From Candidatus Porifericomitales bacterium (lineage in GTDB: Bacteria > Pseudomonadota > Gammaproteobacteria > CBDEFV01): a stretch of DNA of 64,000 nucleotides. Position 1 is the first letter of the stretch. Each line of letters begins with the position of its first letter. The notes under the pieces are model-generated. The model was not told where the DNA came from. It made no database searches and worked only from the letters and a program-made list of their open reading frames with translations. Shown here one piece after another: positions 2,868-47,353 of this stretch. The position numbers and the translations under genes were made by a program. Where the stretch lies: the NCBI GenBank assembly GCA_965237735.1, contig CBDEFV010000007.1:399305-463304 (forward strand). The letters are read 5' to 3'.

Positions 2868-2898
2868 TCGCCGGCGCTCCCTGTGCTATAATTGACGG
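2868..2898 (+). promoter_or_regulatory. sigma70-like promoter inside IR-L (TTGCGT -35, 18-bp spacer, TATAAT -10)
   Basis: The -10 hexamer is a perfect TATAAT at 2893-2898 with an acceptable -35 upstream. A mirrored copy lies in IR-R. This would give a ~350-470-nt GC-rich leader before the signal-peptide codons. Confidence 0.4.
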
Positions 2899-3185
2899 CA
2901 AGGCAGGTTCCGCCTCTCTCCCGGTGTCAGCGTTTTGCGGCCGGGGAGCGCTTCTGCAGGCGGCGGGGCCTCTTTCAAGCTCTATCATTCAGCCACGATC
3001 GGGGAGTTTTCCAGATGTTCAGCAGCACCAGGACGAGCGGCAGCGCAACCGGGCAAGCCGGGCCATCGGCCGCTTCAGCGGCGGCGAGAAGGCGCGGGGG
3101 GCCTGCTGTCTGCGTTGATTGCAACCCTGGGGCCGTCTCTGCGGCCACTGCCGGTCGGCCGCCGCCGCATCGCGCCCTCCTTAAG

Positions 3186-3207
3186 GGGGGGGGGGGGGGG
3201 GGGGGCT
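3186..3207 (+). repeat. 22-nt homopolymeric G tract in the leader of giant gene A (candidate slipped-strand phase-variation site)
   Basis: g x22 at 3186-3207. The equivalent position in IR-R, upstream of gene B, has only 6-7 C/G. Confidence 0.9.
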
Positions 3208-3253
3208 TGCTTCGCAGGCCCTCTGTTCACCCGGCGCCGGCGGGATTCTGCAG

Positions 3254-9200: not shown

Positions 9201-12200
9201 TTACGAGCGATCGGCAGTTGCCCCGCTTCATCATCCCGGCATTCGGTCGATATGGGGAGCTGGAGCTGACGCTGACTCCGATCAACGACAACATCGACGA
9301 GGGCGACAGCGATCCCCTCTTTTTCAGCGTTTTTACAGAGGGGGGGTTGACGGTGGTGCCGGCCCGCCTCGATATCCTCGACGACGACAGCGCCGGCGTT
9401 ACCGTGACGCCGGCGTCCCGGAGAGTGCGTCCCGGGCAGCCGGTCGGCTACGCTCTGGTGCTGGACACGGTGCCGAACTTCGGGACGGTGACGGTGATTG
9501 CGCGCGTCCGGGCTGCGCCCGGCTCTGAGGCCCGGGCGGAGGATATCGAAGTTCCGGGGCCGCTGAGGTTCAACGATGCGAACTGGGATCGGCCGCAGCA
9601 GCTGCGGCTCGAAGCGGCAGAGGAGGTCGGGGGCTTCGGCGGGCTGATCATTGAATTCGACGCAAGCAGCGAGGATCCGCCCTACAACATCGTTGCCGTC
9701 GCCTCGGCCACCCTCGAGCTGACTGACGTCGACACGAGCCTGCAGAGCCTGGAGCTGAGGCTGAGCCGCGGCGGCGAGCGGCTGCCCCTGAGGCAGCAGC
9801 CCGACGGCGACGTCGGCTTCGCTCCCCGGGTGGCCGATTACGAGGCCGAAATTCCGTCCGGCGCCCGCAGTGCCGTTCTGACGGCGACGCCGACTGTTAC
9901 CCGGGACAATGCCGGGGAGAGTGAACAGAGCCCCGGCGAGGTCTATCTCTTCCTCGACGGCGAGCCCCAGGGGAACGGCGCTGACGTCGCCGGCGACGAG
10001 GTTCGCCTGGACCTGTCGACGGGCGGGGAGCTCTTTGTCTTCGACATCGAGGTTTCGGTGGCGCTGCCGCAGGAAAACGGAGAGACCCCGCCTGCCGTCC
10101 AGAACTACCGCCTGACGCTGAGAAGAGCCCTGCCGGAGGGCGCCGGGCTGCATATCCTGGTCGTTGATGAGGACGGAGGGCGGACGCCGCTGACGGCCGG
10201 GACGCCGCTGCGGTTCGGCCCCGACGAGGAGGGCATGAATCTGATTTTCGTCGTCCGCGCCGGCGGCAACCGCTACCCCATCAGCGAACTCAGGGTCAAC
10301 CACGGCGACGACTTCACTCTCCTCAGCGAAGACGACGGCAACCCGACCCGGGTTGAGGAGGGCCGGCTCGCCCTGTCGCGGGGGGAGGTGGTTGCAGACG
10401 GCAGCTTCGAGACGCCGGTGCGGCTGGTACGCAACGGACCCGCTCTGTCTGAGGACTTCGACTTCCGCCTGAGCTTCAGGGCGACGGCGCAGCGGCCGCG
10501 GGCCGCCGGCGCCGAGGAGCTGAGTGCCGAACTCGCCGGCACCCTGGAGGCGAACAGCGAGACGGAGACGGAGATCCGCGCGAACTACAGCGGCGAGGCT
10601 CAGGGCGAAGAATTGCTGCCGGTCTCGACGACCGTCCGCGTCTCGGCCAACGGGCCGCTGACCCTCGTCTGGAGCCTCGGGCGCTCGGGCGGCGGCGACC
10701 GCTCCTTCAAGCAGTCGGACTTCACTTCCACCCTCAGCGTCGGCGAAACGGCGACCCTGAGGATGGCGCAGGACGACGATGAAGAGCTGCGGCAAGTCCT
10801 CTCACTGGACGGGAGTGAGGGCGAGGTCGAGGTCCGCATAGCGGCGACGCACGGAGGCTCGCTGTCGAAGATCCGGGACCCGGAGCAACTGAGCTTCACC
10901 CTTGTGTTCGAAAGGCCGCGGGCGCTGCTTCGTCCGGTCGTCGATGCCGAGCCGCTGCGGGCCTTCCGCGACCCGCTCTTCGTCTTTGTCGAGGAGGGCG
11001 AGCGGCTGAACCGGCAGAACCGGCGGCACCCGCCGGAGCTGGACCTGCAGTTGCCGCTCGAACTGGTGCTGACAGCGGACAGCACGCCGCTGCAGGGCAG
11101 AGACGGGATTCTCCGCGGCCTCGATCTGAGCCCGACGATGACCATCGGCGGCGAGGCGACGGAGGGACTGAGCCTCGGCGGCGGCTCGGGCCGCGATCTG
11201 CTGTTCGCCGCTGCCGAGCCGAGGAACGGTGTCGCCGTCGCCGTGGGAATCAGAGTGCCGGACCCGCGGGTGCGCGTCGATGAGCTGCGCTTCGACGCCC
11301 ACTTCCTGTCGCTGGATCACCCCCTGGAAGTGCCCTTCGACAGGGTCAGCGGCAACGACTTCAAGGGCGACGAGAGGGTCTTCAGCATCTCCCTGAGGGG
11401 CGAGCAGCCGGCGGCCGAGACCTGGACGCTGAGCGTGGCCAACGTCCTCGAACTCGAGGACAACGGCTACAAGGCGGAGGAGGTCATCCAGGTGCCCGGG
11501 GAGCGGCTGCTGAACATCATCAGAAAGCCTGCCGGCGGCGGCGACAACTATAGCTCTGAGATCGTCTCGGTGCAGGTCTTCGACGACATCGTCCCCGGGA
11601 TTGAACCCGGCGCTCCCACTGAGGAGCTGACCGCCGAACAGCTGTCGGCGACCCTGGCCGTCGACGGGGCGGTGCCGCCCGAAGTGCGGCAGCTGCTCGA
11701 CGCCGAGGGGCCGGCGACCCTGACCCTGATCGTCGGCGTCACCCCGGCCCACGATCGCCCGGCGACCGGGGAGGAGCGGCAGGCGCGCACCCGTACGCGG
11801 ACTCTGAGGATCCGCCGCCTGCGGGCCGACGCCACGGACTCGAGGGTCGCGCTCCGCTTCGCCTACACCCCTCCCCCCGGCTTGGGGCGGGCGGGCGTCT
11901 TCAACCGCATCATCCCGCTGGCGACCGGCATCTCTGCGAGGCTGGAGGCGACGCTCAGCCCGGCGGCCCTGGTGCTGCCGAAGGGCGGGACAGCCGAGGT
12001 GCTGCTGGTGGTCAGCAACCTGCTGCTCGGCGAGGATCCCTGCAGCGTCCTCGTTTTCCGGCACTCCGCCGATCTGCAGGTGGCGCCCCGGGCCTGCGCC
12101 GGGGTGGACCGGACCAACCGCCGCTTCGAGCAGCGGCTCGAGGTGCGGGTGGACCAGGACGCGACCGCTCCCGACTACGTGATTCGGGTCGATGTGAACC

Positions 12201-15190
12201 TCGGCGGCAGGAGGAACCTCAGGGCCGAGTTCCGCATCGACATCAACGATGCGCCCCGCTACCAGGGCGAGACGACCCTGAGGGTCAATGAGAGCGGTGT
12301 GGAGACGACCGTCATCGAAGTGCAGCTCGGCTCGGCTTCGGATGGCGTTGCCGGCGTCGAGGAGTATCTGCTGCGGGTCGTCGACCCCGACGGCGGCCTC
12401 AGGTTCCTGGAGCCGTCACAGCTGCGCCTGGAAGTGATCGGCTTCGAGGACGAAGGTCGGCCGATTGGCGATTTGCGACACTCGAACAACTACTTTGACC
12501 TGGAAGCCAGCGTCGTCGAACAGAAGAAGACCGATGAGCAGGCCGGGCCCGAAGGCAACGGCAATGAGCTGTCCCTGACCCTGAGGATCAGCGGCAAGCT
12601 GGCGACGCCGTTCGGCAGCGTCGTCGAGCTGCGGCTGTCCGGCGTCGGCGACGGTTACGGCGAGGGTTTCGAGCAGCGGCTGCGGGTGCGGGTCGAGGAT
12701 GTGGCGCCGACCTTCAGGCTGAGGGCGGAACTGGACGACAAGGCCGTGCCCGTCTATCTCGAGCAGCAGCAGCCGCTCGCCCTGGAGCTGAGCTTCTCGG
12801 ACGGCAGCAGGGACGGCACTGGCGGGGCTCCGACGTTCGTCGTGGCGGAGGCGCCCGACGATCTGGCGGTCCGGGTCGACGCCGTCAACCGACGGGTCAC
12901 CCTGAGGCGGCTGAACGCCCCGGGGAGGGGGGGCCTGGTGCGGCTGGCGGTGCTCGACTCCCAGGGCGGCCGGACGGAGCTGCCGTTCACTGTCGAACGC
13001 CCCGCCCTGCTGCCGCAGATCAGGCCGCAGAACCCGCTGTTCATCGTCGTCGGCGGGACAGAGGAACGGGCTGTGGAGCTGGAGCAGGGAACGGGCATAG
13101 AAGACCTGGAGTGGACCGCCTCGGTCTCAGTCGGCTCCGGTCTCGGGATCGAGCTGAGTCGCCCCGACAGTCGTGGCCATGTCGACCTGGAAGTGACGGC
13201 GTCGCCCTCGGCGCCGCCCGGCCAGGCGCGGATCCTCCTCGAGGCGAGCGCTTACGACGGCATCCATCGGCGGCGGGTCGAGATGCCGGTGGTGGTGGTG
13301 CCGGCCGAGCCGAAGCCGCGGCTGCAGCTGAGCCTGAAGGCCGTTGTCGACGACAGAGAGCCAGCCGTGATTTCAAGCTTCCCGGCGAACGATACCCTCT
13401 TCGTCCAGGCGACCCTGGAGGGAGATGTGCCGGAAGAGCTGTTGGACAGGGTCGCCACCTTCTCGATCGCTATAGCCAAAGTGGGGGCAGCTGGCCCCGG
13501 CGCCGCCCGGACCACGACCTTGACGACTGTCGAGGTCGGGGCCGACGAGATTGACATTGAGGTGCTTGTGGAGACGGGGGCGCTGACGACGGCAGAGGGG
13601 GCCTTGCTCGGTCTTCAGCCGGGCGATGTCGTCGAAGTGTCGATTGAACACCTGTGGGCCGACGGCGAGATCATCGCCGGCGACCGCCTGCGCCTGCCGG
13701 TGACCACGACGATCAGTGCGTCGAGCCTCGACAGCGACAACGACGGCGTCGTCGACGCCTTCGACGACAACGAGGATCCGTCGACCCTGGGGTCGGCGGC
13801 GGCGCCGATCACGGCGGCCGTCGCCCGGGTGACGGAGGACCGCATCGATGTGCAGGGCGCCAGGCAGGTGTCGCTGGCGCTCGGCAATCTGGCGCGCTCC
13901 CTCGGCCTCGGTCAGTGCGGCGGCGTGACCATGGCGCTGACGGTGGGCATGGATGGAGCTCCGCCTGTGCTGAGCGGCTGCGGCGGCCTGTCGGAGAACT
14001 TCGCAGGCCTGGCCCTATCGCAGAGCCTGGCGCTGGCAGATCGCTTCGGACAGGGAGAATACCAGCTGATCGACCTCTCGGCCGGCTTCGACAGCAGCGC
14101 CGTCAACCACGACGAGCCCCTGGTCGTCAGCCTGCCGTTCGACCCGCAGACGACCCGCGTCTACCGCTACGACGACCAGCTCGAGGCCTGGGTGCCGGTC
14201 ATCGACGCCGGCCTGCCGGGTCAGGACGGCGGCCCGGGGGCGCTGAGCAATATCAACCGCGATTGCGACACCTGCTTCTACGGCGTCGACAGCGACCGCG
14301 ACGGCTCGGTCGAGATGCTGCTGCTGCTGCAGACGGTCGAGGATCTGAGCCTGGCCCTGGCCGCTGATGCCTCCGGCTACCAGAACAGGGTCATTGAGCT
14401 CGAGGTCGACCCCGAGGCCGAAGAGAACCCGCTCCTGATCATCCCGCTCGAGCTGGGCGCCGATCTGGAGAAGGTCCGGGTCATAACAGAAATGGACGGC
14501 GTTTTCGGCGTCTACAGCCAGACGGCGACCATAGTCCGCCGCAGGGACGTCAGCACCGGCCCGGCTGTGGTGCTGCGCGGCCTGAGGCGCACGGCGGACG
14601 GCCCCGAGGAGGTGCGGGTCGAGGCGCTGGACGCCGGCGGCGGCGCGGTCGCCACCCTGACCCTGCTGGTCGCGGTTGCCAATCGGCCGCCGGACATCCT
14701 CTTCATGCGGGACGGCGAGGCGACGACTTCGATTCGTATTGAAGCCGACGGCGACCCGGTGATCGTGATCGTGCAGGTCGAGGACCCCGTCGACGGCGAC
14801 AGCAGCTTCGAGCTGCAGCTGCTTGACGACCGGGGCATCGCCGAGCTGGTGCCGCGGCTCAACCGCGGCGGCAGCGTCACCAACGAGCTGAGGCTGACGC
14901 CGGACGCCGGCGGCAGGAATTTCGAGCTGAGACTGAAGGCGACGGATCTGACCGACGACAGCGAGACCTTCGCTTCGCTGAGCGTCTGCGTCCTCGACGG
15001 GGACGGCCGCTGCCGCCGCTCCACGACCGTTGCCGCCGGCGGCGGCGGCGGTGGCGGCAGCAGCGGCCCGCTGTGGCTGCTCCTCGCTGTTCCCGCGGCC
15101 CTGCTGCTCTGGCGGCGGCGGCCGGCCCTTCCCCGGCGCCGACAACAAGTCGGGTCTTTCCCGGCAGGCAGGGTCTCTGCCGTCCGGTAG
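3254..15190 (+). CDS. Giant secreted/surface Calx-beta repeat protein A (~3980 aa) with Sec signal peptide and GlyGly-CTERM-like C-terminal sorting tail
   Basis: Contiguous 11.9-kb ORF. Signal peptide WSRRIAAAAVLLAAALITVLPASA/QEQQ; the true start may be a TTG near 3371, since there is no ATG close to the signal peptide. Dozens of ~100-aa repeats carry DY..G..F..GE...I.DDD..E.DE.F (Calx-beta-like) signatures. C-terminus is GGGGGGGSSGPLWLLLAVPAALLLWRRRPALPRRRQQ. Confidence 0.85.
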   Translation: MGGPAAVSAAARFERAGRVGQSRPSAATAACRDLPSAALGPPLAAPLTSPLTTLTTWSRRIAAAAVLLAAALITVLPASAQEQQPPTLTLRVLPPETISVNEGDTASGAVCFEVVGQPPEEIVFPFDIVLFLESKVFSPTEHEPGGLGSARENIDYVAVIGPVRIRWPAPGASFCRIFPIQTIEDQEVEPDERFRILIELLHGPSGVPVILLGHVITYIILDDDGPVVFAIQDVESGVFDDTIVPPFEEGDEEDAGFREICALVTSHSRGFPREAGVTLSLSMSDGSAVSPQDYSLSGSSERPLFFQQGDRWVCTRFALDVVDDEIYEGDEDLLISLSLEAGSPADLRVSTPKARLRILDNEEPPGIDLFDTAAAERTVDRLTVSEGSNITYYVALNSPPSENVNLQIFIDDPVGDGSTAVNNRSQLLGAPLTFTPADWQSTQGVPVILNHNNYFGPNREVVIRYDAVSGAPDYGAATLTLTVRDTDRVPAVDIEFTFTDDGQTVTADDIDHDRFTEGRAPISLTIKVFARRMRDRAGAFSEPFDLTMEFRPVVWNERQAADYLLDYRVAPQEFMLTLPAFGSEVSTVVDLFLIDDDIAEPDESFQIRGYKSMEERFFPSLHRLANPEASVAIKSDDRRGLLVSATSIRSREGEVGDFTVRLLSQPPAGESVRVDVNLDDVPGLSYLEVDGVSHQLSGDLRLIFTENGWNRPRRVIFSADNELFGPNPEVTIALIPGGAGYNESHKAELTIILEDEDPFPKVGALSLALLSAPENFFPTIESQESVGTVAYKIVAMLDRPSSEDIELSLSFEGSADEDDYRVEPAAPSLTVPAFERVGSTTIRVTFTDDDIAEGVERIDIRISEVPGNTLDPSLSDIINSIFIADALEDMRGVEVSPQQLIVVEGGEAATYTLELTSQPSGPLTVTLTLQSGGDGGEASAVLPAVLIEPMELSFERPNDAPWSEPREIRVSVADNGVEEDPRQATIVHGLTGSDYQSNGVPVPDVLLRVVERGLVLTETAAVNEGEEYRYEVALRSPPAGAVEVAVLVSQGRALRSLETDNGRFEIADRDSVEVPGVLSFTPENWHRTQSVIVRTTDNDYSSPDGLEQVLITHIALGADYGGEKATLTLTVLDNYEPARSITLSLRPSQLSEAAGRVVVTVTAGIDRPRQQDTMVQLRVVAEPVDDDPATGGYATAGRNSDYAVDSASFFLVIEAYDSGGSGNFTLLLIDDDIDENGGEVFLVAAVADLDNVRAHGTATLTIIDDDERGLRISRERLFLVEGGEAEVYSVRLTSQPTALVGVFIQVDYGAAMEGMAMDGMADSVLLNGIPELLLTFGVSGENAWDQEQEVRVTLEENTDSNENREAILRHSAEGGDYQGLPGAAVALRLADRGIRISPTELSVLEGGTAEYSLVLLSAPTASVQVQLSLSDADAIDHLEIGGQRTAVASDPLPSLTFTTDNWDTPQTVRVQAQDNPYSGENEPVTISHSASSDDEGYAGLAIDAVELTIDNEDLESDMLLLEVRLGDSGDFGPFVQFNEERPLGGALVDNVVDVQLRAHLNEAPFRDDRVLLLSVDEELSLATLGRDFSATLTATPDDPEGTGIGQGWIAPGAAALRLTLPKERTTITVGLEFQVKADRSDEDDGEDIQIGGTLEDLSARTAAPVFLDIIDNDVRGLDIRPQALTLVEGGETRTYEVRLTSEPDPDPNRDGVLAPAEGEVSVQIRIAGTETPPGAAPDRIKRVPNSLVFGGDSGPQWNEWQTVDVSLAENDSRHDTREAFLRHSTEGTDYSAAPASQVSLTLVDRRILISTDRLTVVEGGAASYTVTLISPPTGEVTVRVSIARGRLGADGSAAVADAVLAERPLIFDGDDWDQPQAVTVRLADNDYSGENRQIRMEHVAVGGGYDSAQAATVTLTVVNEEEEETTKVRLSLSHAELREDQGPVPVRVRATLDVPRQQDTVLTLVFDDIPEDSPDAAELGLDFTSDRQLPRFIIPAFGRYGELELTLTPINDNIDEGDSDPLFFSVFTEGGLTVVPARLDILDDDSAGVTVTPASRRVRPGQPVGYALVLDTVPNFGTVTVIARVRAAPGSEARAEDIEVPGPLRFNDANWDRPQQLRLEAAEEVGGFGGLIIEFDASSEDPPYNIVAVASATLELTDVDTSLQSLELRLSRGGERLPLRQQPDGDVGFAPRVADYEAEIPSGARSAVLTATPTVTRDNAGESEQSPGEVYLFLDGEPQGNGADVAGDEVRLDLSTGGELFVFDIEVSVALPQENGETPPAVQNYRLTLRRALPEGAGLHILVVDEDGGRTPLTAGTPLRFGPDEEGMNLIFVVRAGGNRYPISELRVNHGDDFTLLSEDDGNPTRVEEGRLALSRGEVVADGSFETPVRLVRNGPALSEDFDFRLSFRATAQRPRAAGAEELSAELAGTLEANSETETEIRANYSGEAQGEELLPVSTTVRVSANGPLTLVWSLGRSGGGDRSFKQSDFTSTLSVGETATLRMAQDDDEELRQVLSLDGSEGEVEVRIAATHGGSLSKIRDPEQLSFTLVFERPRALLRPVVDAEPLRAFRDPLFVFVEEGERLNRQNRRHPPELDLQLPLELVLTADSTPLQGRDGILRGLDLSPTMTIGGEATEGLSLGGGSGRDLLFAAAEPRNGVAVAVGIRVPDPRVRVDELRFDAHFLSLDHPLEVPFDRVSGNDFKGDERVFSISLRGEQPAAETWTLSVANVLELEDNGYKAEEVIQVPGERLLNIIRKPAGGGDNYSSEIVSVQVFDDIVPGIEPGAPTEELTAEQLSATLAVDGAVPPEVRQLLDAEGPATLTLIVGVTPAHDRPATGEERQARTRTRTLRIRRLRADATDSRVALRFAYTPPPGLGRAGVFNRIIPLATGISARLEATLSPAALVLPKGGTAEVLLVVSNLLLGEDPCSVLVFRHSADLQVAPRACAGVDRTNRRFEQRLEVRVDQDATAPDYVIRVDVNLGGRRNLRAEFRIDINDAPRYQGETTLRVNESGVETTVIEVQLGSASDGVAGVEEYLLRVVDPDGGLRFLEPSQLRLEVIGFEDEGRPIGDLRHSNNYFDLEASVVEQKKTDEQAGPEGNGNELSLTLRISGKLATPFGSVVELRLSGVGDGYGEGFEQRLRVRVEDVAPTFRLRAELDDKAVPVYLEQQQPLALELSFSDGSRDGTGGAPTFVVAEAPDDLAVRVDAVNRRVTLRRLNAPGRGGLVRLAVLDSQGGRTELPFTVERPALLPQIRPQNPLFIVVGGTEERAVELEQGTGIEDLEWTASVSVGSGLGIELSRPDSRGHVDLEVTASPSAPPGQARILLEASAYDGIHRRRVEMPVVVVPAEPKPRLQLSLKAVVDDREPAVISSFPANDTLFVQATLEGDVPEELLDRVATFSIAIAKVGAAGPGAARTTTLTTVEVGADEIDIEVLVETGALTTAEGALLGLQPGDVVEVSIEHLWADGEIIAGDRLRLPVTTTISASSLDSDNDGVVDAFDDNEDPSTLGSAAAPITAAVARVTEDRIDVQGARQVSLALGNLARSLGLGQCGGVTMALTVGMDGAPPVLSGCGGLSENFAGLALSQSLALADRFGQGEYQLIDLSAGFDSSAVNHDEPLVVSLPFDPQTTRVYRYDDQLEAWVPVIDAGLPGQDGGPGALSNINRDCDTCFYGVDSDRDGSVEMLLLLQTVEDLSLALAADASGYQNRVIELEVDPEAEENPLLIIPLELGADLEKVRVITEMDGVFGVYSQTATIVRRRDVSTGPAVVLRGLRRTADGPEEVRVEALDAGGGAVATLTLLVAVANRPPDILFMRDGEATTSIRIEADGDPVIVIVQVEDPVDGDSSFELQLLDDRGIAELVPRLNRGGSVTNELRLTPDAGGRNFELRLKATDLTDDSETFASLSVCVLDGDGRCRRSTTVAAGGGGGGGSSGPLWLLLAVPAALLLWRRRPALPRRRQQVGSFPAGRVSAVR

Positions 15191-15865
15191 CCGGCTCGGG
15201 GCCCGGCTCCCCGCCCCCTCTTCAGGGTGTGGAATCAGCCCGATGTTCGCAGCAGCATCTTCGCCGAGCGGTGGCGGCGGCGGCGGCAGCAGCGGCCCGC
15301 TGTGGCTGCTCCTCGCTGTTCCCGCGGCCCTGCTGCTCTGGCGGCGGCGACCGGCCCTGCCCTGGCGCCGACAACTCTGGAGCCGGGTCTTTCCCGGCAG
15401 CGGGGTCTCCGCGGCCCGGTAGCCAGCTCAGGGCCCGGCCCCCCGCCCCCTCTTCAGGGTGTGGAATCAGCACGATTTTCGCAGCAGCATCCTCGCCGGA
15501 CAGCGGCGGCCCGTTGTGGCTGCTCCTCGCTGTTCCCGCAGCTCCGCTGCTCTGGCGGCGGCCGGCCCTCCCCCCGTCGCCGACAACAAGTCGGATCCTT
15601 CCCGGCAGGCAGGGCCTCTGCGGCCGGCAGCCGGCTTGGGGCCTGGCCCCCCGCCCCCTCTTCAGGGTGTGGAATCAGCGCGATTTTCGCAGCAGCATCC
15701 TCGCCGGACAGCGGCGGCCCGTTGTGGCTGCTCCTTGCTGTTCCCGCGGCCCTGCTGCTCTGGCGGCGGCGGCCGGCCCTTCCCCGGCGCCGACAACTCT
15801 GGAGCCGGGTCTTTCCCGGCAGGCGCCTGCCGCGGCGCCGGCTCTCCGATTACTGCTGCCGGAGA
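15191..15865 (+). repeat. Tandem array (~3 extra copies, ~230-bp period) of promoterless tail cassettes re-encoding the gene A C-terminal sorting signal
   Basis: Units begin gtgtggaatcagc... and each encodes ...SGCGIS(P/A/T)(M/I)FAAASSP(S/D)G(n)SSGPLWLLLAVPAALLLWRRRPALP...stop. Copies differ by SNPs and indels and sit in different frames. Confidence 0.8.
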
Positions 15866-15952
15866 AAGTCCTGTAGCGAGGCGAGCAGCGCCCGGTGGAA
15901 GGGCGCTCGGGCTGCTCGATCATCATCATGTGGCCCGTCGCCAGAGATCTCG
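15866..15952 (-). pseudogene. Displaced fragment of the alpha/beta-hydrolase gene 3' end (native copy 30464-30560)
   Basis: The sequence ctgctgccggagaaagtcctgtagcgaggcgagcagcgcccggtggaagggc...catcatcatgtggcccgtcgccagagat matches the hydrolase C-terminus (GHMMMIEQPE...LQDFLRQQ*). Confidence 0.65.
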
Positions 15953-16480
15953 TCGTCACCGCGGTGCCGCCGCTGACGGCCTCTGGACGCGCAAGGAAAA
16001 TCTGGTCCTGGCCATCGAGACCGCCGACTGCATACCGCTGCTGCTGGCCGCCGACGACGGCGCGATCGTCGCCGCCCTGCACGCCGGCTGGCGCGGATTG
16101 GCCGGCGGCATCATCGACGCCGCCCTCGAGGCCCTGCCCTGTCGCCCTCAAAAGCTGCGGGCCTGGATCGGCCCGGCCATCTCGCAGCAGCACTACGAGG
16201 TCGGCAGCGAGGTGCGTCAGACCTTCCTCGAGCAGGATGGGCGCCCTCGCGTCCTTTTTCCTCCCCTCGCCGCCCAGAACGGCCGAAGCCGACGCCTCCC
16301 CGGGTCTCCGCTGGCTCGCCGACCTGCCCGGCATGGCCGCACACCAGCTGCGCCAGTTCGGATTAACGCAAATTTACAACTGCGGCCTCTGCACCTTCGC
16401 CCGCCCCGAACTGTTTTTTTCCTACAGGCGCGGCGACCGTCACAAATTTATTGTCACCTTCATCTGGCGGCAGCCGGCGA
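15953..16480 (+). pseudogene. Partial frameshifted copy of pgeF (3' two-thirds) fused by microhomology to the hydrolase fragment
   Basis: Encodes DGLWTRKENLVLAIETADCIPLLLAADDGAIVAALHAGWRGLAGGIIDAALEALPCRPQKLRAWIGPAISQQHYEVGSEVRQTFLEQD, then continues after a frameshift to ...FSYRRGDRHKFIVTFIWRQP. The junction gccgccgctgacggcctc matches the native pgeF sequence gccgcagctgacggcctc. Confidence 0.75.
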
Positions 16481-16745
16481 CCTCCCGCCAGGCCCTCACG
16501 GGTCGGGACGGCTCCGTTTCCAGCCCGCAGGAGCAGGTTTTTAGCGGGCGCGCTCCCTGCGCCTCCTGAGCCACACCATAGCGGCCCCCAGAGCCAGGGC
16601 CAACAGCAACAGATCGCTCCAGCCGACGGCTCCGATGCCGCTGGAGCGGATACTCAAGGTGACCTCGTATTGGTCGACCTCCTCGCCGTTGTCATCGAAG
16701 ACAAGGAAGCGGACATCAATATCGGCCTCAGGCCGAGGGGAAGGC
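16481..16745 (-). repeat. Dispersed copy of the pgeF-downstream segment, encoding the C-terminal tail of the small secreted protein
   Basis: gagccacaccatagcggcccccagagccagggccaacagcaacag...ccgctggagcggatactcaaggtgacctcg matches 36255-36340 and 36505-36600. On the minus strand it encodes ...SSGIG.VGW..LLL.ALALGAAMLWLRRRRQ. Confidence 0.7.
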
Positions 16746-16794
16746 GGCGGCGCTGCAATCGCTGCGGCCGTCGGGCGCTTCGACGCCGATGATC

Positions 16795-17150
16795 AGCCTG
16801 TGCCCGGCCGGCCGGCCCTCGCCGGCGGGCCCGGGCGCCGGCGATGCGCAGGGCCTGGCGTTTCTTCGGCAGCAGGGCCTTGCCGCCGTAACCCGTCCCG
16901 GAGAAGGGCCCAGGAATCTGTAGCCTGTGAACAGGGGGCCAAGCCTCGAGCCGGCTGCAGAGCGGCAGAGGCCCCGCCTGCCGGAAAAGGCCTGGCAGCT
17001 ATTGTTGTCGGCAACCGCGGAGGGTCGGTTGGCGCCGCCGGAGCCCGTCCCGGAGAAGGGCCCAGGAAGCTGTAGCCTGTGAGCAGGGGGCCAAGCCCCG
17101 AGCCGGCTGCAGAGCGACAGAGACCCCGCCTGCCGGAAAAGGCCTGGAAG
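16795..17150 (-). repeat. Tandem array (2 extra copies, ~146-bp period) of the region immediately downstream of gene B's C-terminal tail
   Basis: ctattgttgtcggcaacc...gcctgccggaaaaggcctgg(a/c)ag is repeated at ~16850, ~16996 and in the native copy at 17151. Confidence 0.75.
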
Positions 17151-20100
17151 CTATTGTTGTCGGCAACCGTGGAGGGCCGGTCGCCGCCGCCGGAGGGTCA
17201 CCAACGCCGCCGGGGCGGCGAGGAACAGCCACAGCAGGCCGCTGCCGCCGCCGCCGCCGCCGCCGCCGGAGGAGCGAGAGGCCGCGGGGCATTTGCCGTC
17301 TTCATTGAGGACACAGACGGTCAGTCGCTCGGAGAGCGTCCCCCCGTCGTCGTCGGGATCGGTCAGATCGGTGGCCCTGACCCTCAGCCTGAAGGGCGAG
17401 CGGGCAGCGCCCGGGGTCAGTACCAGTCTGTGCTCAACCACAAAGACCGCGGGATCGTTGACAGAGGGCATCGCCCTTGACACCAGCCGGGCAATCTCAT
17501 CGTCGCCGGGCTTCGCCAGTTCCAGCCTGAAGCTGTCGTCGCCGTCGGGGTCGGTGATGATCACCCTGACGACCGTTTCCGTGTTCGGCTCCAGGCTGAT
17601 CGTCGTGGTTTCCTCGCCGTCCAACTCGAAGGTGATGACCGGAGGCTGATTGCGAACCCCGACCTGGAGGGTGAAGGAGGCGACGGCTGCTCCGCCGTCA
17701 TCGTCAAACAGCTCGACCAGCACCTCTTCGGGCCCGCCGAGGGTGCGCTTGCTACCGGTCAGAATCAGGGCGGGGCCGGCTGCAACGGTGTTGCTGAATT
17801 CGCCCTCGACATTGTCGCTTCCCGTGACGACCGGAGTCAGACCCGGGCGCAGGCCGGACAGGGGGATGACAGTTCCGTCCGCCCCGGCATCCAGCTCGAG
17901 GCGGCGGTCGCGGAACTCTTCGCCCACCTCAAGGTTCAGCGGCTCTTCCACGGACCGCAGCAGCAACAGCAACTCGACCGAGCCGTCGCGGTCGTCGTCG
18001 ACGCCGTAGAAGCAGGTGTCGCAGTCGGCGACGCCTTCCAGGGCTCCGGCGCCGCCGGCGCCACCGGGCAGACCGGCGTCAATCACCGGCACCCAGGTCG
18101 CTTCGACGAGGCGATAGACCTCGTAGGACAGGTGCTCCCCGGGATGGGGCGGCAGGTTGATCAGCACCAGCTCGTTGGCTTCGGTCTCAGAGCTGTCGAA
18201 GCGGATCGAGAGATCGACGATCAGGTAATCCCCCGCGCCGCCGCCGAAACCACCAGCAGACAAGGCCTGAGTCACGGCCTCTGCCGTGTCGAGGTTTTCA
18301 AAGTCGGTCAGCAGGGCGTCGCCGCAACCGCTCAAACCGGCGACGGTACCGTCCATGGCCACCATCAGCGCCAGGGTCACGCCGCCGCACTGGCCGAGAT
18401 TGAGGGAGCGCGCCAGGTTGCCGAGCGACAGCGACAGCTCGTCATCCTGCACCTCGACGCCGGCGTCCGTCACCGCGGCGACGGCGGCCTCGATCGGCCC
18501 CAGAATGGCGGGGTCGACTTCGTCGCCGGCGGCGTCAACCAGGCCGTCGTTGTCCGTGTCGATGAAGGCGTCCAGAGGCTCGGCTGAGTCGCGCAGGTCG
18601 ACGACCGGCAGGCGCAGGCGGTCGCCCTCTATGACTCCTGAGCCGAAGAAGTGACTGATCGAGATCTCCACCACCTGGCCGTCAGCAACATCCAGTCCCT
18701 GCAGTCCAGTAGCCGAGGCTGTCATCAACGCCAGCCCGACACGGAGGTCGGCATTGACCTCGACCGTCGTCGTCAGTTCCCACTCGACAGTGGCAGTGGC
18801 TATCGGCTCTCCGTCGGGGCCGAGCCGGGCGATGCTGAGCGTGAAGGTCGTGACGCTGCCGACCTCAATCTGCTGCGGCAGCTGGCCTGCCAGGGTCGCC
18901 TCGACGAAGAGGGTGTCGGTCAGCAGGAAGCTGGAGACCGTCGACCCTGCGGTCGTCGGATCGGCGGGGTCCGCGGCCTTCAGACTCAACTGCAGGCGCG
19001 GCCTGGGAGCGGGCGCCACCACCACCACGGGGAGCTCTGCCGTCCGCTGCATGCCGTCAGCGGAGGTCGCGGTCAACTCAAGCATGAAGGCCCGGCCGGC
19101 CACTGCCAGCAAAGCGCTCACGGCCACCCGGCCGCTGCCATCGTCCAGGGTCTCCACTACGGCGTTGAGATCCTCGTGCCCAGAGGCTGTCCAGATCACC
19201 TCCAGGTCGGTGGCCTCGGTGAAACTCAGCTCCCGCACGACCGGGTTGTCATCGCCGGCAACCACCAACAGCGGGCTCGGCGGCAGAATCTGCGGCAACA
19301 GCGACGGGCGCTCAATGTTGAGGGTCACCTCTGTCCGCCCGCCCTGGGAGTCGACCACCACCAGGGTTATTTGCTCATCCTCGTCGTCCTGAGAGTCGTT
19401 CAGGCGTATCAGGGTGACTTGTCGCTGCTCCCTGTCGAACCGGACCACCAGATCGTCCGGCGCATGCTGCACGACGACGACCGGAAGCTGGTCCCCAGGG
19501 GTTGCGCCTCTCCTGCCGTCCGAGAACTCATCCAGCTTCAGGACAACTTCCCGCTGGTCGGCGAAGACAGTGACCGTGGTCGTCGCCAACATAAAAGTCG
19601 GCGCCACATCCTCGACCTGGACGAGCAGGCGCTGGTTGAGCACATCGTAACCGTCGGTGGCGCCGGACAGGCGCAACTCGACGACACTGCCGAAGGGCGT
19701 CGCCAGCCGGCCGGTGAGGGTCAGGGTGACGAAGAGCTCATTGGCGCCCCCTGCCAGATCCCTCCGTTCGACGGAGCCGGACGCCAGACTGAAGTAGGGC
19801 ACCAACTCCTGTACTCCCGTGCCAAAGGTGAACGGCTCTGAGTTGTTGTCGCCTAGGACCGCCTCCAGCATCAAATCATCCGGGCTCAGCTCCATCAGGC
19901 CGCCGTCGGGGTCGTGGACGGTCAGGACATAGGCCTGGATGCCGCCGGCGGCCGCATCGCCGTCCTCTTTGACTGTCAGCCGGGTCTCGCCGACATATTC
20001 CGGAGCATCGTTGATGTCGATGCGGAACTCGGCCCGGGCGCTCCTGCCGCCGAGACGCACATCTATCGAAACCGGATACCCGGCCCTGTCCGCACTCTCC

Positions 20101-23100
20101 GACACCTCGACTGTCAGGCGCTGTTCAGACCTGCGGTTGTTCCTGTCAATTTCGGCGGCCTCCAGAGGGGCGACCCTCAGGTCTGTCTGGTCAAACCTGT
20201 AGGTAATGGCGCCGCGGACGTTCGGATCGTCGGTCTCGAGCAGGTTGCTGATCACGAGCGTCAACTCCGTCGAGCCGCCCCGGGGAAGCACGATATCCTC
20301 CACCGTCTCGTCGTTGTCGCCGCGAACCTCGGCGTTCAGCACGGGCTCCTCGCCGGTGAGCAGGGCAATGATGCGGCTGAAGCGGCCGGCAGCTCCTTCG
20401 TCGACGACGCCGGGCCTGTAATCAACGCCCAGCAGGATCCTGCTGTTCCTCGGATCATCGCTCGTGCTGGTGATTCGCAGGGTGCGCGTCACTGTCGCCG
20501 CCTGCCGCTCCTCCCCAGTTGCGGGGCGATAGGTAGCTGGAATTTCAGTCACGACGGTCGCGGTCCTGAGGCTATCATCGGCCGCGAACTGGGCAAGCGC
20601 ATCGACCGGCACATCCGCCTCGGCGACATCCTCGAAGGCGGTCGCCACCGTCGTATCGGGGCCGTCTCCGTCCAGGAGCCTGACGGTGACTGTCCTGCTG
20701 CTGTAGGTCGTAATCAAGGTCGTCGACCCCGGCTCAGCGGGCATGACCACTCTGCCGACAATCCGGGAGACCCGGGTCGCGCGCTCGACGACAACGACTT
20801 CTTCCACCTCGTAGCCGCCGTCGTCCAACTCCAGGGGGTTGCCGACGCTGAGCGTCCAGCTCTCCGCCGAACCGGCGCCCTTCAGCATCACTCTGGAGAT
20901 GACGACCGGCTGTTCCTCGTCGCTGTTAATCCCGATCTCATCATCATAGATGAACGACAGCAAGTGCGCAGTGAAGTCCAGAGAAGCGACGTCCACCAGG
21001 GCGGTCCGTTCGGCTGAGGCGTCATTCGCCAGCCCGACTGTGACACCGACATTCGCCCGCGGCGCCATCACCTCGAACAGCAGGTCGCGCCCGGGGGCCG
21101 CGGAACCGGCGGGGCCGCCGAGGCGGATGGCATTGCCGGCTCCCTCTCCGACAACAGTCAATGTCAGGCTGATACCCCCGAGGATCCTCCCGCTGTCGGC
21201 CAGCGGCGTGCTGTCCCCTGTCAGCGCCACTTCCAGCGGCAGGCGGTTGTCGTTGTCGTTGTCGTTGTCTTCGCCGTTGTCTTCGTTGACAAAAGCGAAG
21301 AACAGATTGCTGTCGAAGTCGAACAGGGCATCAGCGCTGGCGGCCGGGCGGATCTCCGCCGTCGGCCTGACGAAGCTGACGTTGAACTGCAGAGGCACCG
21401 GGTCATTGATTCTGTCCCCCAGGGTTGCACCGCCCGTGGCGTCGACCGTCACACCAATGTTATCGCCTGACTGGATCTCAAGGCGGTCGTCGGTCAAGTT
21501 CACCCTGTCCGAATCAGCCGGGGTGACGCTGAGAGTGAAGCTCGCCTGCTCAAAGTCGCGGAGACCGCCGCTGCGGCGCTCCACCCCCAGGTCAATGGTC
21601 AGGGTGCCGTTGCTGGAAACCCTGATCAGATCTCCCTGACTAACGGGGAGCGCCTGCTCTTGGTCATGGCCCCTGTAGCTCGCGCGAATCCCCGTCGCCG
21701 TATCGCTGTTGTCGTACAGGGTGCCGGCGACCCCGACCGTCAGCTGTTCGGCGCCGACCGCCAGCGGACGCTGCGGCGTCGCCGTGAAGGTCAAATTGAA
21801 GGTGAAGGTACCCGCCGTCAGGGCCTGGTCCCGCCTCAGGGTGACCGGAGTTTCGAAAGCGCCCTCCTCAGGCTCCGTCTGCGAACCCGTGTCCACACGG
21901 ACCCGGGCGCCCAACCCTGGGCCAGCGGCCTCGAGTTCGCTGATGCTGTAGCTGTTGCCGTCTTCGTCCCGCACGACAAAGATCAAATCCATCTCGTCGA
22001 CGTCCGGGCCGAAGTTCAGCGGCGCGTCCAGCGTCAGCGGCCTCTGCCGCTCTGCGTCGGCAGCGGGGAACACCAGCAGGGCCGCCGCCGCCGGCAGGGC
22101 CCGCCTCAGCCTCAGGGTGTAGGTCTCGAAGACGGTTTCATCATTCGACCCCTCCAGAGGATCCACAGAGACCTGGATACGGAACTCGAAGTCAACTCCA
22201 TCCCGCCTCAGCCTCTGCCGATCAACCACAACCTGTTGGCCGGCGACGTTGTCGCCGTCCTCCAGCGCCTCCGGAGCGCCGCTCCCAGTGACATGGAAGA
22301 TGCGCACTTCGGCCCGGTTCTGTACCTTGACCCCATCGACAACAATGTCCCCGGTGGCCGTCGGCACGGCCCTGATGAAGGCTCTGTCGGTGCCGAAAGG
22401 GATGTCGGCGCCGTACTCCAGCACATTGGCGTCAAAGACCGGCCTCAGCGTCGCCATCCGGCCCCCGTCCAGCGCCACCTCCAGAGAACTCAGGCGGGCG
22501 TCAGTGTCGCTGAGCTCGAGGGACAGGGTGCCGCTCTCGCCGTCGTAGTCGCCGCCGGTCGCGCGGTGAACGAGTTGCAGGACCCGGGGGCCGTTGGCCC
22601 CGGTGTCCTCGGCCGCCGAGACGATCACGGTCTGGGGCCGATGCCAGTTCTCCGTCGTGAACATCAGCCTGTCGCTCTGCTCTCCAGCGACACTGAAGCT
22701 CAGGCCCGCATTCTCCAGCGAACCCGGGTAGCCGTCAGGAGTGACGACGGCGATCTCCAGGTTCACGGTGAGCGTCGGCGAGGAAGCCAGCCGTACACTG
22801 TACTCGCTGCCCCTGCCCTCCAGCACTCTCAGCAACGCCGGCGCAAAGAGCAGGCCGCGCTCATCGTCGTCGAGGATGCCCAGGCTCAGCACCGGGGCCT
22901 CGGCATCGGCGCTGAGCGGCGTCTGGGCAATGACGTTGATGGCACCAACCTGCAGATGTTCGGTCCCCTCGGCGATCCGGTCCTGCAGCAGCTGCAACTC
23001 CACCGCCGTCTCCACCGCCGCCTGGCCCGCCGGGATCAACAGAGTCGGAGGCTCAAGGAGATAGTCCACCCCAGCCTCGGCGAGCGCATCGGTTCCCTCC

Positions 23101-26100
23101 CCGGCAATGACCAGCTCCACCACGACAGCCTCGAAGTAGGGCACGTCCAGTTCTGCCCGGATGCTCAGCCGCACCCGGCCTTCGCCTTCACCGACCTCGA
23201 GGGTGCTGGTGTATTCCGCCCCGTCTCTCGACAGGGTCAGCCTGTAGTGCTGCGGCGGCTCTTCGTCGTCGAGGACGCTCAGGACGACCGGCTCCAGCGG
23301 CTGTCGCTCGTGCAGCAGATGGTAGACGGGGTCTCCGCCGTCCGGGAACTCGCTGCTGACCCTGTGGTCGATGCGCACCACGCGGGTGCCTGAATAATAG
23401 TCGTTGCCGATCGCATTGACCCGCACCGTCTGCGTCTGATTCCAGTCGTCCTCCGCGAAGCTCAGGAAGGGCACATTTTCCCTGAGAAGCCCATTCCGGC
23501 CGCTCACCCGATCCAGGCGAATCGCCTGCCGACCCGCAGTGACTGCCAGCGTCACCGTCACTTCGGCCGTCGGCCGGGAAGTCAGCACCACTTCGTAGGT
23601 CGTGGAGGCGTTTTCCGGCACAGTCCTCTGCCCGGCCGCGGAGATGAGGATGCCGGCCTCGTCGTCGTCCACGACGGTCAGGCCGAATCCCAGGTTTTGC
23701 TCGCTGCCGTAACGATGGGCCCCTCCCTGATTGCTTCCCGCCTCGAGCAGCAGCCGGTAATTCCTGTTCCCTTCAGCCACGGAGTTGTCCGACGCCCCGA
23801 TCGACAGCTCCCGGGGCGACATCCAGTTGTCCGCGTCAAAGATCAGCGCCGGCGACACAAGAAGCTCCCCGGCGCCCTCGGGGACAGCGATGCCGACACT
23901 CACCTGCTCGCCCGGATGCGGCTCGGAATTGAGCCTCACCGTAAAGGAAACCCTTTCGCCTTCGGACACGGACCGAGCCGCGACCGCCCCCGGATAGACG
24001 CCGTCGATCCAGAGGCCGCGCTCGTCGTCGTCGAGGATGCTGATGCTGTGAGAAAGCGGCGACAGCTGAAGGCCGGAAGCGGTGCTGTAGACGAGACTGA
24101 AGTCCTCGTCTCCCCCGGCCACTTCATCGTCTGTCAGACTCAGGGTCAGGGTCAGAAGCCGCATCGCCGCCCCCGCCTCAATGGTCAGCCGCTGCGGCAG
24201 CGCCGGCACAAAGGAGTAGTCCTCACCCCCGGTCGCGCTGCCCTGCTGCAGTTCCAGATCGATCACCACCGCCGTATCCGTGACCGCCCCATTCAACCGC
24301 GCCTCGACCGTCCATTCCACAACCCCGCCTGCTTCGCCCAGCTGCAGATTATCCGGCAAGCCCCTGAGGATGATATCGACGCGGGTTGACGGCCGATCGT
24401 CGTCCTCAATCCTGAGCGCAAGGACGGCGCTCTCGACACTGTAGCCGCCGGCCGGCGCGGCCACGCTGTGGCGGATCTCCAGCTCGTGATTGTCCGGGTC
24501 GCTGTCGTCAAGGGCGGTGACGGTCACAACCCTGCCCTCAGTCGCAGACCAGCCGTCCTCGCTGAAGGTCAGCGAGGACGGCGAGACGGAGACGCGGCCG
24601 GCCAGAGCCCCGTCAAACTCCAGGGCAATCCCCACATCGCCGGTCGGCCGCGAACTCAGGTTGACCCTGTATTCATAGCTCCCGCCTTCCCTCAATCTCT
24701 GCGGCCTGCCCGGCTCCGGCTCCGGCTCAATGACCAGACCGCGCTGATCGTCGTCGATGATCGTCACCACCGGGGTCCGCACCTCAGCAATGCTGAAGCT
24801 GGACGCGCCAGCTAAGAACGACAAGGCTTCCGTCTCCTCGGCGTAATCATCGTCCACCACAGACAACAGGACGAGCGCCTCGGTCACGGCCTCGCCGGGG
24901 AGAAAATCCAGCTCCAGCGGCGGAACAGAGAAATCGACGCCGGCAGAAGCCGCGCCATGGTTTTCACTGAGCCCACGGCCATCCAAGGTCACCCGGAAGA
25001 CACCGAAATAGGCCACGTCCAGCTCCGCCCTGACTCCCAGCTGAACCTCGCCATCGTCCTCCCGAAGTTCGATGGAATCGGTGTACTCGGAGCCGTCCCG
25101 CGACAGGGTCACCACCAGCCGCTGCGGCGGACCCTCGTCGTCGGCAACGCTCAGCTCGACCGAGGGAAGTCCGCTCAAGGCCGCGTAGCTGCCGTCTTCG
25201 CTGCTGAGGCTGTGCTCGATGCGCACCACGCGGGTGCCTGAGTAATGGTTGTTGTCCAAGGCCTGGACCTGCACCGTCTGCGTCTGATTCCACCGACCCG
25301 GCGCGAACTCCAGCGCCGCCACCCCAGCGGTCAGAATACGGTTGCTCCCGTCCACCCTGTCCAGCCGGACAGCGCCCTGACCCTCAGCGATGAGCAGCGA
25401 CACCCTGACCGTGGACATCGGCTGCGAACTCAGGGCCACCCTGTAGCTGGTGGCGGCGGAGCCGGCCAGAGGGTCGCCGGAGGGGCTCTCAAGCAGCAGC
25501 CGGTTGCCCTCATCGGGCCCGACGATGAGGACCCCGGCCTCGTCGTCATCCTCCAGCTGCAGGCTGAAACAACAGTTCGCAAAATTATAATTACCGGCAC
25601 CCGCGCTGATGACATCGAGGCCGAGCAGGTAATTCCTGGTGCCCCGGTCGATGTCGTCGTCCGGCACCCGGATGGCCAGCACCTGGGCGATGTCCCAGTT
25701 CTCGGGCTTGAACCTGAGGGGGAGCACCGGCGACGTCTCCAGGCGGTCGGGCGGCCCTTCAGGCACAATACCATTCCGAAAGGTGTTCACATTCACAGTG
25801 TCCGTCGGCCGCGAACCCAGGCGCATCGTCAGGGTGATGACGTCGTCCTCCACCCCTTCTCTCAGCCTCAGGGCGCCCCCCTCGATCTCAAATTCAAAGG
25901 GCGGAATCCCGGCGTGCGGGCGGAGCAGAACCTCAGGCAGCAAACCCTCCCCCGGAGCCGTGCCGCTCACCCTGAGGCCGATCTCGTCGCTGCTGAGGAT
26001 AGCGATCTCTCTCTCAATCAGCCGTTGACCCTCCTCGGCTTCGGCAAACTTCAGGAGCAGGCCGGAATCGGTCTCGGCACGGAACAGGAAAGATTCCTGT

Positions 26101-29366: not shown

Positions 29367-29906
29367 CAGGGCCGGAATTGGGGCCGGAATCCGGCCCGAT
29401 GGCAGACCTCTGTACGCTGCGGGCTGCCGCCGATGGCCGCGACTGCCCGGCCCGCCCGGCCCGCTCAAACCGGGCGGCAGCGCTAACCGCCGGCTGGGCC
29501 GCCCATCTGTGCAGAATCCCGCCGGCGCCGGGTGAACAGGGGCCTGCGAGGCAAGCCCCCCTTTAAGGAGGGCGCGATGCGGCGGCTGCCGCCGCAGAGA
29601 CGGCCCCAGGGTTGCAATCAACGCAGACAACAGGCCCCCCCGCCTTCTCGCCGCCGCTGAGGCGGCCGATGGCCCGGCTTGCCCGGTTGCGCTGCCGCTC
29701 GTCCTGGTGCTGCTGAACATCTGGAAAACTCCCCGATCGTGGCTGAATGATAGAGCTTGAAAGAGGCCCCGCCGCCTGCAGAAGCGCTCCCCGGCCGCAA
29801 AACGCTGACACCGGGAGAGAGGCGGAACCTGCCTTGCCGTCAATTATAGCACAGGGAGCGCCGGCGACGCAAATTCAAGAAGCGGTCAGGGCGAGGGCGC
29901 GGCAGG
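29225..29906. repeat. Right arm of large inverted repeat (IR-R), mirror of 2829-3510
   Basis: Reverse complement of IR-L, including the promoter-like TATAAT (attata at 29846-29851) and the leader. Has C6-7 where IR-L has G22. Confidence 0.85.
29838..29868 (-). promoter_or_regulatory. Mirrored sigma70-like promoter for gene B inside IR-R
   Basis: Reverse complement of the TTGCGT-N18-TATAAT element. The MTARQ ATG at 29843 would lie upstream of the predicted transcription start, which argues for a later start for gene B. Confidence 0.35.
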
Positions 29907-47346: not shown

Positions 47347-47353
47347 TGGGACC

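Follow-up and report, generated by a model that had tools for sequence, protein, structure and literature searches.

A mosaic of gene 3' ends between two giant genes of Candidatus Porifericomitales bacterium is probably a decayed segmental duplicate

In the stretch of DNA analysed here (the window: 64,000 nt of contig CBDEFV010000007.1, assembly GCA_965237735.1, from Candidatus Porifericomitales bacterium; all coordinates are window positions), two convergent giant genes are separated by a gap of 1.96 kb, which contains a mosaic of the 3' ends of an alpha/beta hydrolase gene, of pgeF and of the gene for a small protein. We consider it probable, at roughly three chances in four, that this segment is a non-functional remnant of one segmental duplication. 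Its pieces keep the order and orientation, hydrolase (minus), pgeF (plus) and small protein (minus), of one native 6.4-kb block (30241-36669; hydrolase-CysMet-BamD-RluD-PgeF-small protein), and on the simplest reading of the sequence one duplication of this block and one internal 5.08-kb deletion (or a single copy-choice jump) would be enough for all three pieces. An earlier interpretation made from the letters alone (the sequence-only reading) had derived the segment from three distant genes; these genes were found to form a single block. The parts of the segment, and the native features to which they correspond, are listed here; L015 is one of three related loci (L015, L016 and L017, from ENA long-read metagenomes) whose PgeF proteins are 78%, 72% and 69% identical to that of the window, respectively.

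15621-15974, unstranded: left arm of the duplicated block (tail unit and hydrolase 3' end), homologous to 30241-30586
15850-15974, minus strand: hydrolase 3' pseudogene fragment, last 40 codons and stop; a 2-nt insertion shifts the frame
15963-15974, unstranded: hydrolase/pgeF junction, imperfect 12-nt microhomology GGCGCCGCNGCT; equals removal of native 30587-35663 (5077 bp)
15975-16478, plus strand: pgeF 3' pseudogene fragment, matching residues ~98-269 of L015 PgeF (tblastn, two frames)
16541-16729, minus strand: copy of the small-protein C-terminus, 62 codons and stop; Gly/Ser motif, helix, RRRR
16730-16881, unstranded: 152-bp filler between the mosaic and the 3' repeats of giant gene 2
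16882-17195, minus strand: two tandem 152-bp copies of the 3' end of giant gene 2 and its flank, 92.6% identity
30464-31279, minus strand: native alpha/beta hydrolase gene (Pfam), 81% amino acid identity to the L015 orthologue
35364-36521, plus strand: native pgeF (Cu-oxidase_4; PF02578 at 1.2e-53)
36098-36593 (36098-36346 / 36349-36593), unstranded: native 247-bp x2 tandem duplication of the pgeF-end/small-protein-tail junction, 96.8%
36466-37082, minus strand: native small protein gene with signal peptide and sorting-like tail, frameshifted near 36.8 kb

Comparison of the central region with the whole window by BLAST matched 15621-15974 to 30241-30586 (355 bp, 90.7%, E 7e-138), 15960-16651 to 35649-36344 (698 bp, 89.4%, E 0) and 16410-16729 to 36349-36669 (85.8%, E 2e-101). 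The second and third matches overlap because the native pgeF/small-protein junction has its own 247-bp tandem duplication. These matches, which are far beyond chance, bear out three components in the order originally proposed; 15960-16729 as a whole matches 35649-36669, so that the 3' two-thirds of pgeF are indeed present together with the small-protein tail, and the native convergent junction between these two genes is repeated in the mosaic. The limits of the segment had to be redrawn: the hydrolase piece is 125 nt long, from the stop codon at 15850-15852 through 15974, rather than 87 bp, the start first given for the segment (15866) falls inside this piece, and homology to the small-protein tail stops at 16729 rather than continuing to 16745. 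The pgeF fragment lacks the N-terminal third, and a 1-nt insertion near 16245 divides its match into two frames, while the small-protein tail copy has no upstream start codon and an in-frame stop at ~16795. To the left of the hydrolase piece, homology extends for ~229 bp through a tail unit of the giant-gene type (T4, equivalent to T5 at the native locus), just as it does at the native locus. The left border of the copy therefore lies inside homologous tail units, and the right border is an illegitimate joint at 16729/16730.

Ungapped identity between the mosaic and the native loci was 97.6% for the hydrolase coding part (mismatches at 3/123 positions), 93.2% for pgeF (34/503), 90-92% for the small-protein tail and 91.0% for the tail unit with its flank. 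Similar gap-free divergence of the pieces is compatible with a single event, as far as such figures can indicate. Overall, 2-10% of the aligned bases differ and there are several indels, which excludes a misassembly of reads from the native loci, the objection named at the outset as capable of overturning the finding. The mosaic has one copy of the 247-bp unit and is more diverged than the native pair, and is therefore older than the native duplication. For the filler at 16730-16881, no source was found by blastn or tblastx against the window and all fetched loci, which gave noise only; the possibility that it is a degenerate third copy of the adjacent 152-bp repeat was rejected by eye. The 152-bp copies themselves (16882-17195) resemble the distal part of a tail unit and lack the Gly-run and the membrane helix. 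Long spurious open reading frames, e.g., 15459-16544, run across the mosaic.

Alignment of the breakpoints against the native loci showed that the parental breakpoints of the hydrolase/pgeF joint share a 12-mer. The mosaic reads ...CACCGCGGTGCCGCCGCT / GACGGCCTCTGG, the hydrolase parent ...CACCGCGGCGCCGCCGCT / CCTCAG and the pgeF parent ...GGCGGGGCGCCGCAGCT / GACGGCCTCTGG, and the two parents have in common GGCGCCGC(C/A)GCT, with 11/12 positions identical (hydrolase 30575-30586, pgeF 35652-35663, mosaic 15963-15974). A joint at a microhomology had thus been correctly recognized, and its extent is 12 nt instead of the 9 bp first reported. The 12-mer GGCGCCGCNGCT occurs 4 times on both strands of the window, compared to 0.64 expected, and 2 of these 4 occurrences are the parental breakpoints; this rare 12-mer at both breakpoints is good evidence that microhomology mediated the joint. 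Scans of JGI metagenomes for the exact junction and for the 3' end of the clade's pgeF yielded no matches.

With these borders, a second copy of the native block, which is at least 6.4 kb long, is present 3' of giant gene 1. The duplicated block comprises a tail unit, the genes for the hydrolase, a CysMet-family protein, BamD, RluD and PgeF, and the 3' third of the gene for the small tail-bearing protein. From this copy, 5.08 kb of interior sequence is missing between the two GGCGCCGCNGCT sites in the hydrolase gene and pgeF; this interior could have been lost by later deletion or skipped by one template jump during copying, and both fit equally well. Copying probably began by recombination or break-induced copying in the repeated tail units, and the tail units and giant paralogues, judged from where they occur, seem to mark several rearrangement breakpoints in this lineage. 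Only gene 3' ends remain because the block is bounded by convergent pairs (a giant-gene tail facing the hydrolase gene, and pgeF facing the small protein gene) and its middle has been deleted. The 3'-end bias is thus a by-product. The left border is homologous rather than illegitimate. In addition, an inversion between two 138-bp repeats (arms M and I, described below) may have made the present order; as an alternative to direct duplication, a history in which the block was first duplicated in inverted form and then flipped is self-consistent. A single duplication-inversion-duplication event that would have made giant gene 2 and the mosaic together was rejected, since the two giant proteins share only 37-47% amino acid identity.

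The mosaic copy is dead. Its hydrolase and pgeF fragments are both truncated and frameshifted, by 2-nt and 1-nt insertions, respectively, and the pgeF fragment does not make up a full-length PF02578 domain, as it covers residues ~98-269 only, in two frames. When pgeF changes were polarised with L015-L017 as outgroups, 18 changes fell on the mosaic branch (codon positions 7/6/5) and 13 on the native branch (3/1/9); this codon-position test, although based on small counts, shows relaxed selection in the mosaic copy relative to its native source. No promoter-like site was found in the region, Rfam and transfer RNA scans of the window returned nothing, and there were 3 terminator-like hits compared to 1.5 expected. 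The short palindromic motif of the tail units was also considered as a hairpin or terminator and dropped, its folds being no more stable than those of shuffled sequences (z -0.3 to -1.8), and it is not a dispersed element of the repetitive extragenic palindromic (REP) type. A homologue search of a public protein collection with the frame-corrected mosaic PgeF recovered no mosaic product, and exact look-ups of six mosaic open reading frames and ten guessed partial products of giant gene 2 found none of them in this collection.

Comparison with relatives indicates that the mosaic arose within this lineage, since its pgeF is closest to the window's own gene (89% identity, compared to 77-81% for L015-L017). 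A PgeF scan of GTDB representatives yielded distant relatives only, with a best match of 39%. L015-L017 keep the order CobS-TyrS-EamA-hydrolase-CysMet-BamD-RluD-PgeF, followed by the same secretion operon as in the window, and have no giant genes and no mosaic. Examination of related genomes, as had been proposed, therefore showed the native block to be present and both the mosaic and the giant genes to be absent.

Several further observations concern the native genes. Native pgeF lacks the stop position used in relatives (273-290 aa) and continues to 385 aa; this extension crosses the antisense of the small-protein tail and the 247-bp tandem duplication. The small protein gene of L015 (10780-11500, minus strand) is broken at other places than that of the window, and the small signal-peptide/tail gene could either be a pseudogene in both or carry assembly indels. 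An F-type type IV secretion operon (37289-59652) adjoins pgeF and includes genes for TraG_N, TraH, TraF, TraN, TrbC, TraU, TraC, a TrbI-like protein, TraK and a TraD-like protein. The parts of this operon that are visible in L015-L017 occupy the same position, and the clade seems to keep the operon as a stable part of its chromosome.

The two giant genes and the tail units associated with them are as follows.

3254-15190, plus strand: giant gene 1, 3978 aa; Calx-beta and a LapA-like hit (open reading frame list, Pfam)
15249-15849, plus strand: three extra tandem tail units T2, T3 and T4; T1-T4 periods 229, 214 and 208 bp
17151-29366, minus strand: giant gene 2, 4071 aa from MPPLTT; the longest open reading frame extends to 29843
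30241-30463, plus strand: tail unit T5, fused to the native hydrolase 3' flank

Both giant proteins have Calx-beta domains, a signal peptide and a C-terminal Gly-run, hydrophobic helix and Arg cluster, and share 37-47% amino acid identity. At the end of giant gene 1, tail unit T1 (~15020-15248) encodes a Gly-run, a hydrophobic helix and an RRR tail; the exact protein of giant gene 1 was found on 2 contigs of the public protein collection. Units T2-T4 repeat the last ~230 bp of this gene, are 84-92% identical and consist of tail-coding sequence only; their tail peptides lie in three different frames and have no start codon. At the motif TTTCCCGGCAGGC, T4 breaks off and passes into the hydrolase 3' flank, in precisely the way that T5 does at the native locus. 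The sequence-only reading had counted one additional, third copy of a sorting-tail sequence between the giant genes, which is too few: the gap holds three units of the giant type (T2-T4, plus strand), one tail of the small-protein type (minus strand) and the two 152-bp copies. Upstream of the giant genes, the ~540 nt before the signal-peptide start are ~80% identical between the two (2829-3368 and 29906-29366), which could reflect a conserved long leader, a regulatory region or a conversion tract. Where this upstream homology starts, 51 bp of internal leuA sequence (1197-1247) are found again at 2803-2853, with 90% identity.

The layout of the C-termini resembles a known sorting signal. The GlyGly-CTERM sorting signal is described as being processed by rhombosortase (PMC3237569, PMC6219818), and in its layout a Gly/Ser-rich motif is joined by a hydrophobic helix and, at the very C-terminal end, a cluster of basic residues (PMC6219818). 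The same tripartite layout was seen in translations of the giant and small-protein tails, e.g., GGGGGGGSSGPLWLLLAVPAALLLWRRRPA. However, no tail in the window reaches the curated TIGR03501 score: the best was 8.6 bits for the small protein against a cut-off of 15.5, and the giant tails had no TIGR03501 hit. All tails were below the cut-offs of the other CTERM models as well, and no rhombosortase was found among the scanned open reading frames of the window. Assignment of the tails to a sorting-signal family was therefore rejected, and they are called sorting-like only.

Near-identical relatives of both giant genes were found at other loci, and in all at least four giant-gene loci were seen, next to leuA, the hydrolase gene, the glycosyltransferase/AI-2E genes and TyrS-EamA. 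Giant gene 2 (17172-29885) is 99.6% identical to a gene for a 4066-aa protein on L019, which is flanked by glycosyltransferase genes on one side and by genes for an AI-2E transporter, DjlA, SmpB and SurA on the other. Of the 49 differences between them, 28 lie in 28441-29881, 20 in 17174-17461 and 1 in the 11 kb between. This central 11 kb (17462-28440; L019 gene 9476-22198) thus differs at 1 position, while the ends differ by 2-7%; identity of the core at two loci would reflect either recent gene conversion or a collapsed consensus. Homology between the two genes stops inside the tail-coding sequence (17151-17260 and L019 22110-22201, respectively), indicating that giant gene 2 has a hybrid tail, in which the Gly-run and helix are L019-like and the RRRR and 3' flank are of the giant-gene-1 tail-unit type. 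A distant giant homologue, P0121 (48% to the giant 1 C-terminus), was found on L018 (3848-4743), followed by its own tail-unit array (195 bp x4.5, 98%), and it shares downstream neighbours with the L019 giant gene. L021 (5248-17188), an independent contig of the same sample, carries TyrS and a 3'-truncated EamA gene, then a 5'-truncated twin of giant gene 1 that is 98.9% identical to window 5914-15212, followed by ~six tail units that are 92-94% identical to T5; the mosaic core is absent behind this twin. The L021 locus is the other half of a broken ancestral EamA/hydrolase adjacency.

The neighbourhood of giant gene 2 was also found to be rearranged, with the following elements at its borders.

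15765-15901, plus strand: inverted-repeat arm M; basic cluster, CCGACAAC motif and last 52 nt of the hydrolase gene
30107-30254, minus strand: inverted-repeat arm I, partner of M; 94.2% over 138 bp (30244-30107, reverse complement)
30005-30113, minus strand: CobS 5' fragment, residues ~12-48, 37 codons; between the giant gene 2 upstream region and the inverted hydrolase end

The segment made up of the basic cluster, the CCGACAAC motif and the last 52 nt of the hydrolase gene is present three times, as M (15765-15901), as N (30371-30515) and, inverted, as I (30244-30107); arm I forms a local palindrome with 30371-30515 (87.3%). M and I flank 14.2 kb (15902-30106) that hold the mosaic core, the filler, giant gene 2 and the CobS 5' fragment. 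This 14.2-kb segment, seen in one orientation, may be invertible; flipping it would set the giant genes in tandem and make the hydrolase-to-small-protein block a clean palindrome with its centre near 30241-30254. An element 82% similar to I lies upstream of the L019 giant gene, which indicates that the joint between tail and hydrolase is old and has travelled with giant genes. No TyrS or EamA was found in the window; the presence of the CobS fragment together with the absence of TyrS and EamA indicates that the ancestral CobS-TyrS-EamA-hydrolase block was split here. Tail-unit fragments are found at the tail/hydrolase joint (M, N, I and L019), beside the CobS fragment and, in L021, beside TyrS.

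Among the other explanations weighed, it is unlikely that separate illegitimate template switches copied the hydrolase, pgeF and small-protein 3' ends successively into the gap between the giant genes, as the sequence-only reading had proposed in inferring at least two switches. Two non-homologous joints do exist, one at the microhomology and one between the small-protein tail and the filler at 16729/16730, and further stray fragments occur in the region (CobS 5' at 30005-30113, the 51 bp of leuA at 2803-2853 and the inverted hydrolase end at 30107-30157). However, that the ends were moved separately did not hold up, because the order and orientation of one 6.4-kb block are kept, pgeF and the small protein form a single unbroken piece, the hydrolase piece runs into a tail unit in the same way as its native counterpart, which makes the left side homologous, and one duplication plus one deletion, or one 5.08-kb jump on the same template, suffices. 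The lower divergence of the hydrolase piece than of the pgeF piece would also suit separate switches, but this difference rests on 3/123 compared to 34/503 mismatches. It is distinctly unlikely that the tail units serve as portable homology through which giant genes and their flanks are exchanged between loci in a cassette-like shuffling, with the mosaic as a by-product; if such exchange holds, it would also have left its mark in the hybrid tail of giant gene 2 and in the tail fragments at several rearrangement breakpoints. A function for the segment, as a store of 3' cassettes for swapping giant C-termini or as antisense or 3' untranslated region RNA acting on the convergent giant genes, is very improbable. 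Tandem tail units do stand behind giant genes at three loci (the window, L018 with 195 bp x4.5 and L021 with ~six), the crossover in giant gene 2 falls inside tail-coding sequence, and read-through from either giant gene across the mosaic would give antisense RNA. On the other hand, the tail units are near-identical rather than diversified and tail-coding only, no associated open reading frame scores above a Pfam or NCBIfam cut-off, the gene fragments are frameshifted and evolving neutrally, and no promoter-like site, RNA family or unusually stable structure was found. Moreover, the tail arrays need no special explanation, since this genome commonly has short tandem duplications at the ends of other genes.

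Least probable of all is that the position of the mosaic is unreal, with the contig joining reads of different loci or strains across repeats such as the giant cores and tail units. The DNA comes from a long-read metagenome assembly of low coverage (5-7x for related contigs), the mosaic was read in one assembly, the 11-kb core of giant gene 2 is virtually identical to a copy elsewhere, and an independent contig, L014, breaks exactly at the repeat border. Against this, the divergence and indels noted above mean that the mosaic is not made of native-locus reads, the mosaic is closer to this genome's genes than to those of any relative, and the 12 nt of similarity at the hydrolase/pgeF joint are too short for a graph mis-join. 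In addition, a further independent contig of the same sample, L020, matches window 1-11896 at 99.99%, has the identical 3978-aa giant gene 1 and extends 7,754 nt beyond its stop, which corresponds to window 15191-22944 if collinear. L014, from the same sample, is 99.97% identical to window 28429-46521; its end coincides with the border of the identical core, and it shares the window's base at 37/39 variable sites, confirming the hydrolase-side entry into giant gene 2, whereas L019 pairs the other entry with the other exit and has downstream synteny in common with L018. By elimination, the entries and exits of the giant-gene-2 repeat pair consistently.

Some points weigh against a single segmental duplication as the origin of the mosaic. 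The mosaic is 2-10% away from its source, whereas giant gene 1 differs by only 1.1% from its truncated twin in L021 and the giant gene 2 core by ~0.01% from its L019 copy. Had a giant gene and its flank been copied together, the giant genes would need to have undergone gene conversion with one another afterwards. By small counts, the hydrolase piece, at 2.4% divergence, seems more recent than the pgeF piece, at 6.8%. The right joint is not analysable, as the source of 16730-16881 was not found, and the order of events has two alternatives, i.e., direct duplication or inverted duplication plus inversion. A role of the mosaic at the RNA level is possible, and the mosaic itself was seen in one assembly.

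Segmental duplication followed by microhomology-mediated deletion that leaves pseudogene remnants is part of general bacterial genome evolution. Like other decayed segmental duplicates, the mosaic consists of collinear paralogous segments joined at a short, imperfect repeat, and it has disabling indels and a neutral pattern of substitutions; unlike typical ones, it sits between two convergent ~12-kb genes, its left border lies in a repeated sorting-tail unit and the intermediate was not observed. Replication-based complex rearrangements, such as those by fork stalling and template switching or microhomology-mediated break-induced replication (FoSTeS/MMBIR) and duplication-inversion-duplication structures, offer a second comparison, since the window has joint microhomology, duplicated segments flanking an inverted one and a local palindrome (30107-30515), and the hydrolase/pgeF joint can be read equally well as a templated jump of 5 kb. 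Such a mechanism may have acted here, but the giant paralogues (37-47% amino acid identity) are much older than the duplicated flanks, and a single event therefore does not explain everything. The orphan modules of cdiA-CT/cdiI and rhs are 3' cassettes found downstream of giant toxin genes; the window likewise has fragments of a giant gene's 3' end arrayed directly downstream, but its units are nearly identical and encode the Gly-run/helix/Arg tail and nothing else, with neither divergent toxin domains nor immunity genes, and the remaining fragments are debris of housekeeping genes.

Across the window (G+C 66.7%), the order from left to right is leuA, giant gene 1, the gap, giant gene 2, the hydrolase block, the type IV secretion operon, RarA and DnaB, with leuA placed as follows.

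339-1895, minus strand: leuA

Nine tandem arrays with units of 93-281 bp were found in the window, seven of which lie within 32-53 kb at or beside gene ends (32455-33578, 36098-36593, 40101-40660, 45539-46095, 47080-47482, 48767-49289 and 52113-52741; 2-6 copies, 94-96%). Array sites include the CysMet 5'/BamD 3' and pgeF 3'/small-protein 3' junctions, the TraH 3' end and the TrbC/TraU junctions. The 5 arrays covered by L015 are single-copy there, the 4 covered by the independent contig L014 are identical, and other relatives carry arrays of their own (L018: RecX x3, SurA end x2). One explanation for these gene-end arrays is that short tandem duplications arise at a high rate and that selection leaves those at gene boundaries, and some other mechanism is possible as well; the tail-unit arrays look like one case of the clade's general tandem-duplication habit.

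The mosaic, in itself debris, is best regarded as one more decayed segmental duplicate that was cut down at a microhomology, here in an uncultured proteobacterium of high G+C content. It also marks the giant-gene region as a rearrangement zone in which the ancestral CobS-TyrS-EamA-hydrolase synteny has been broken and giant paralogues are being homogenised between loci. This is relevant to binning, assembly and annotation, since spurious long open reading frames cross the mosaic and giant-gene repeats break contigs. If it were true that the tail units drive exchange between giant adhesin loci, this would be a modestly interesting route of surface-protein evolution.

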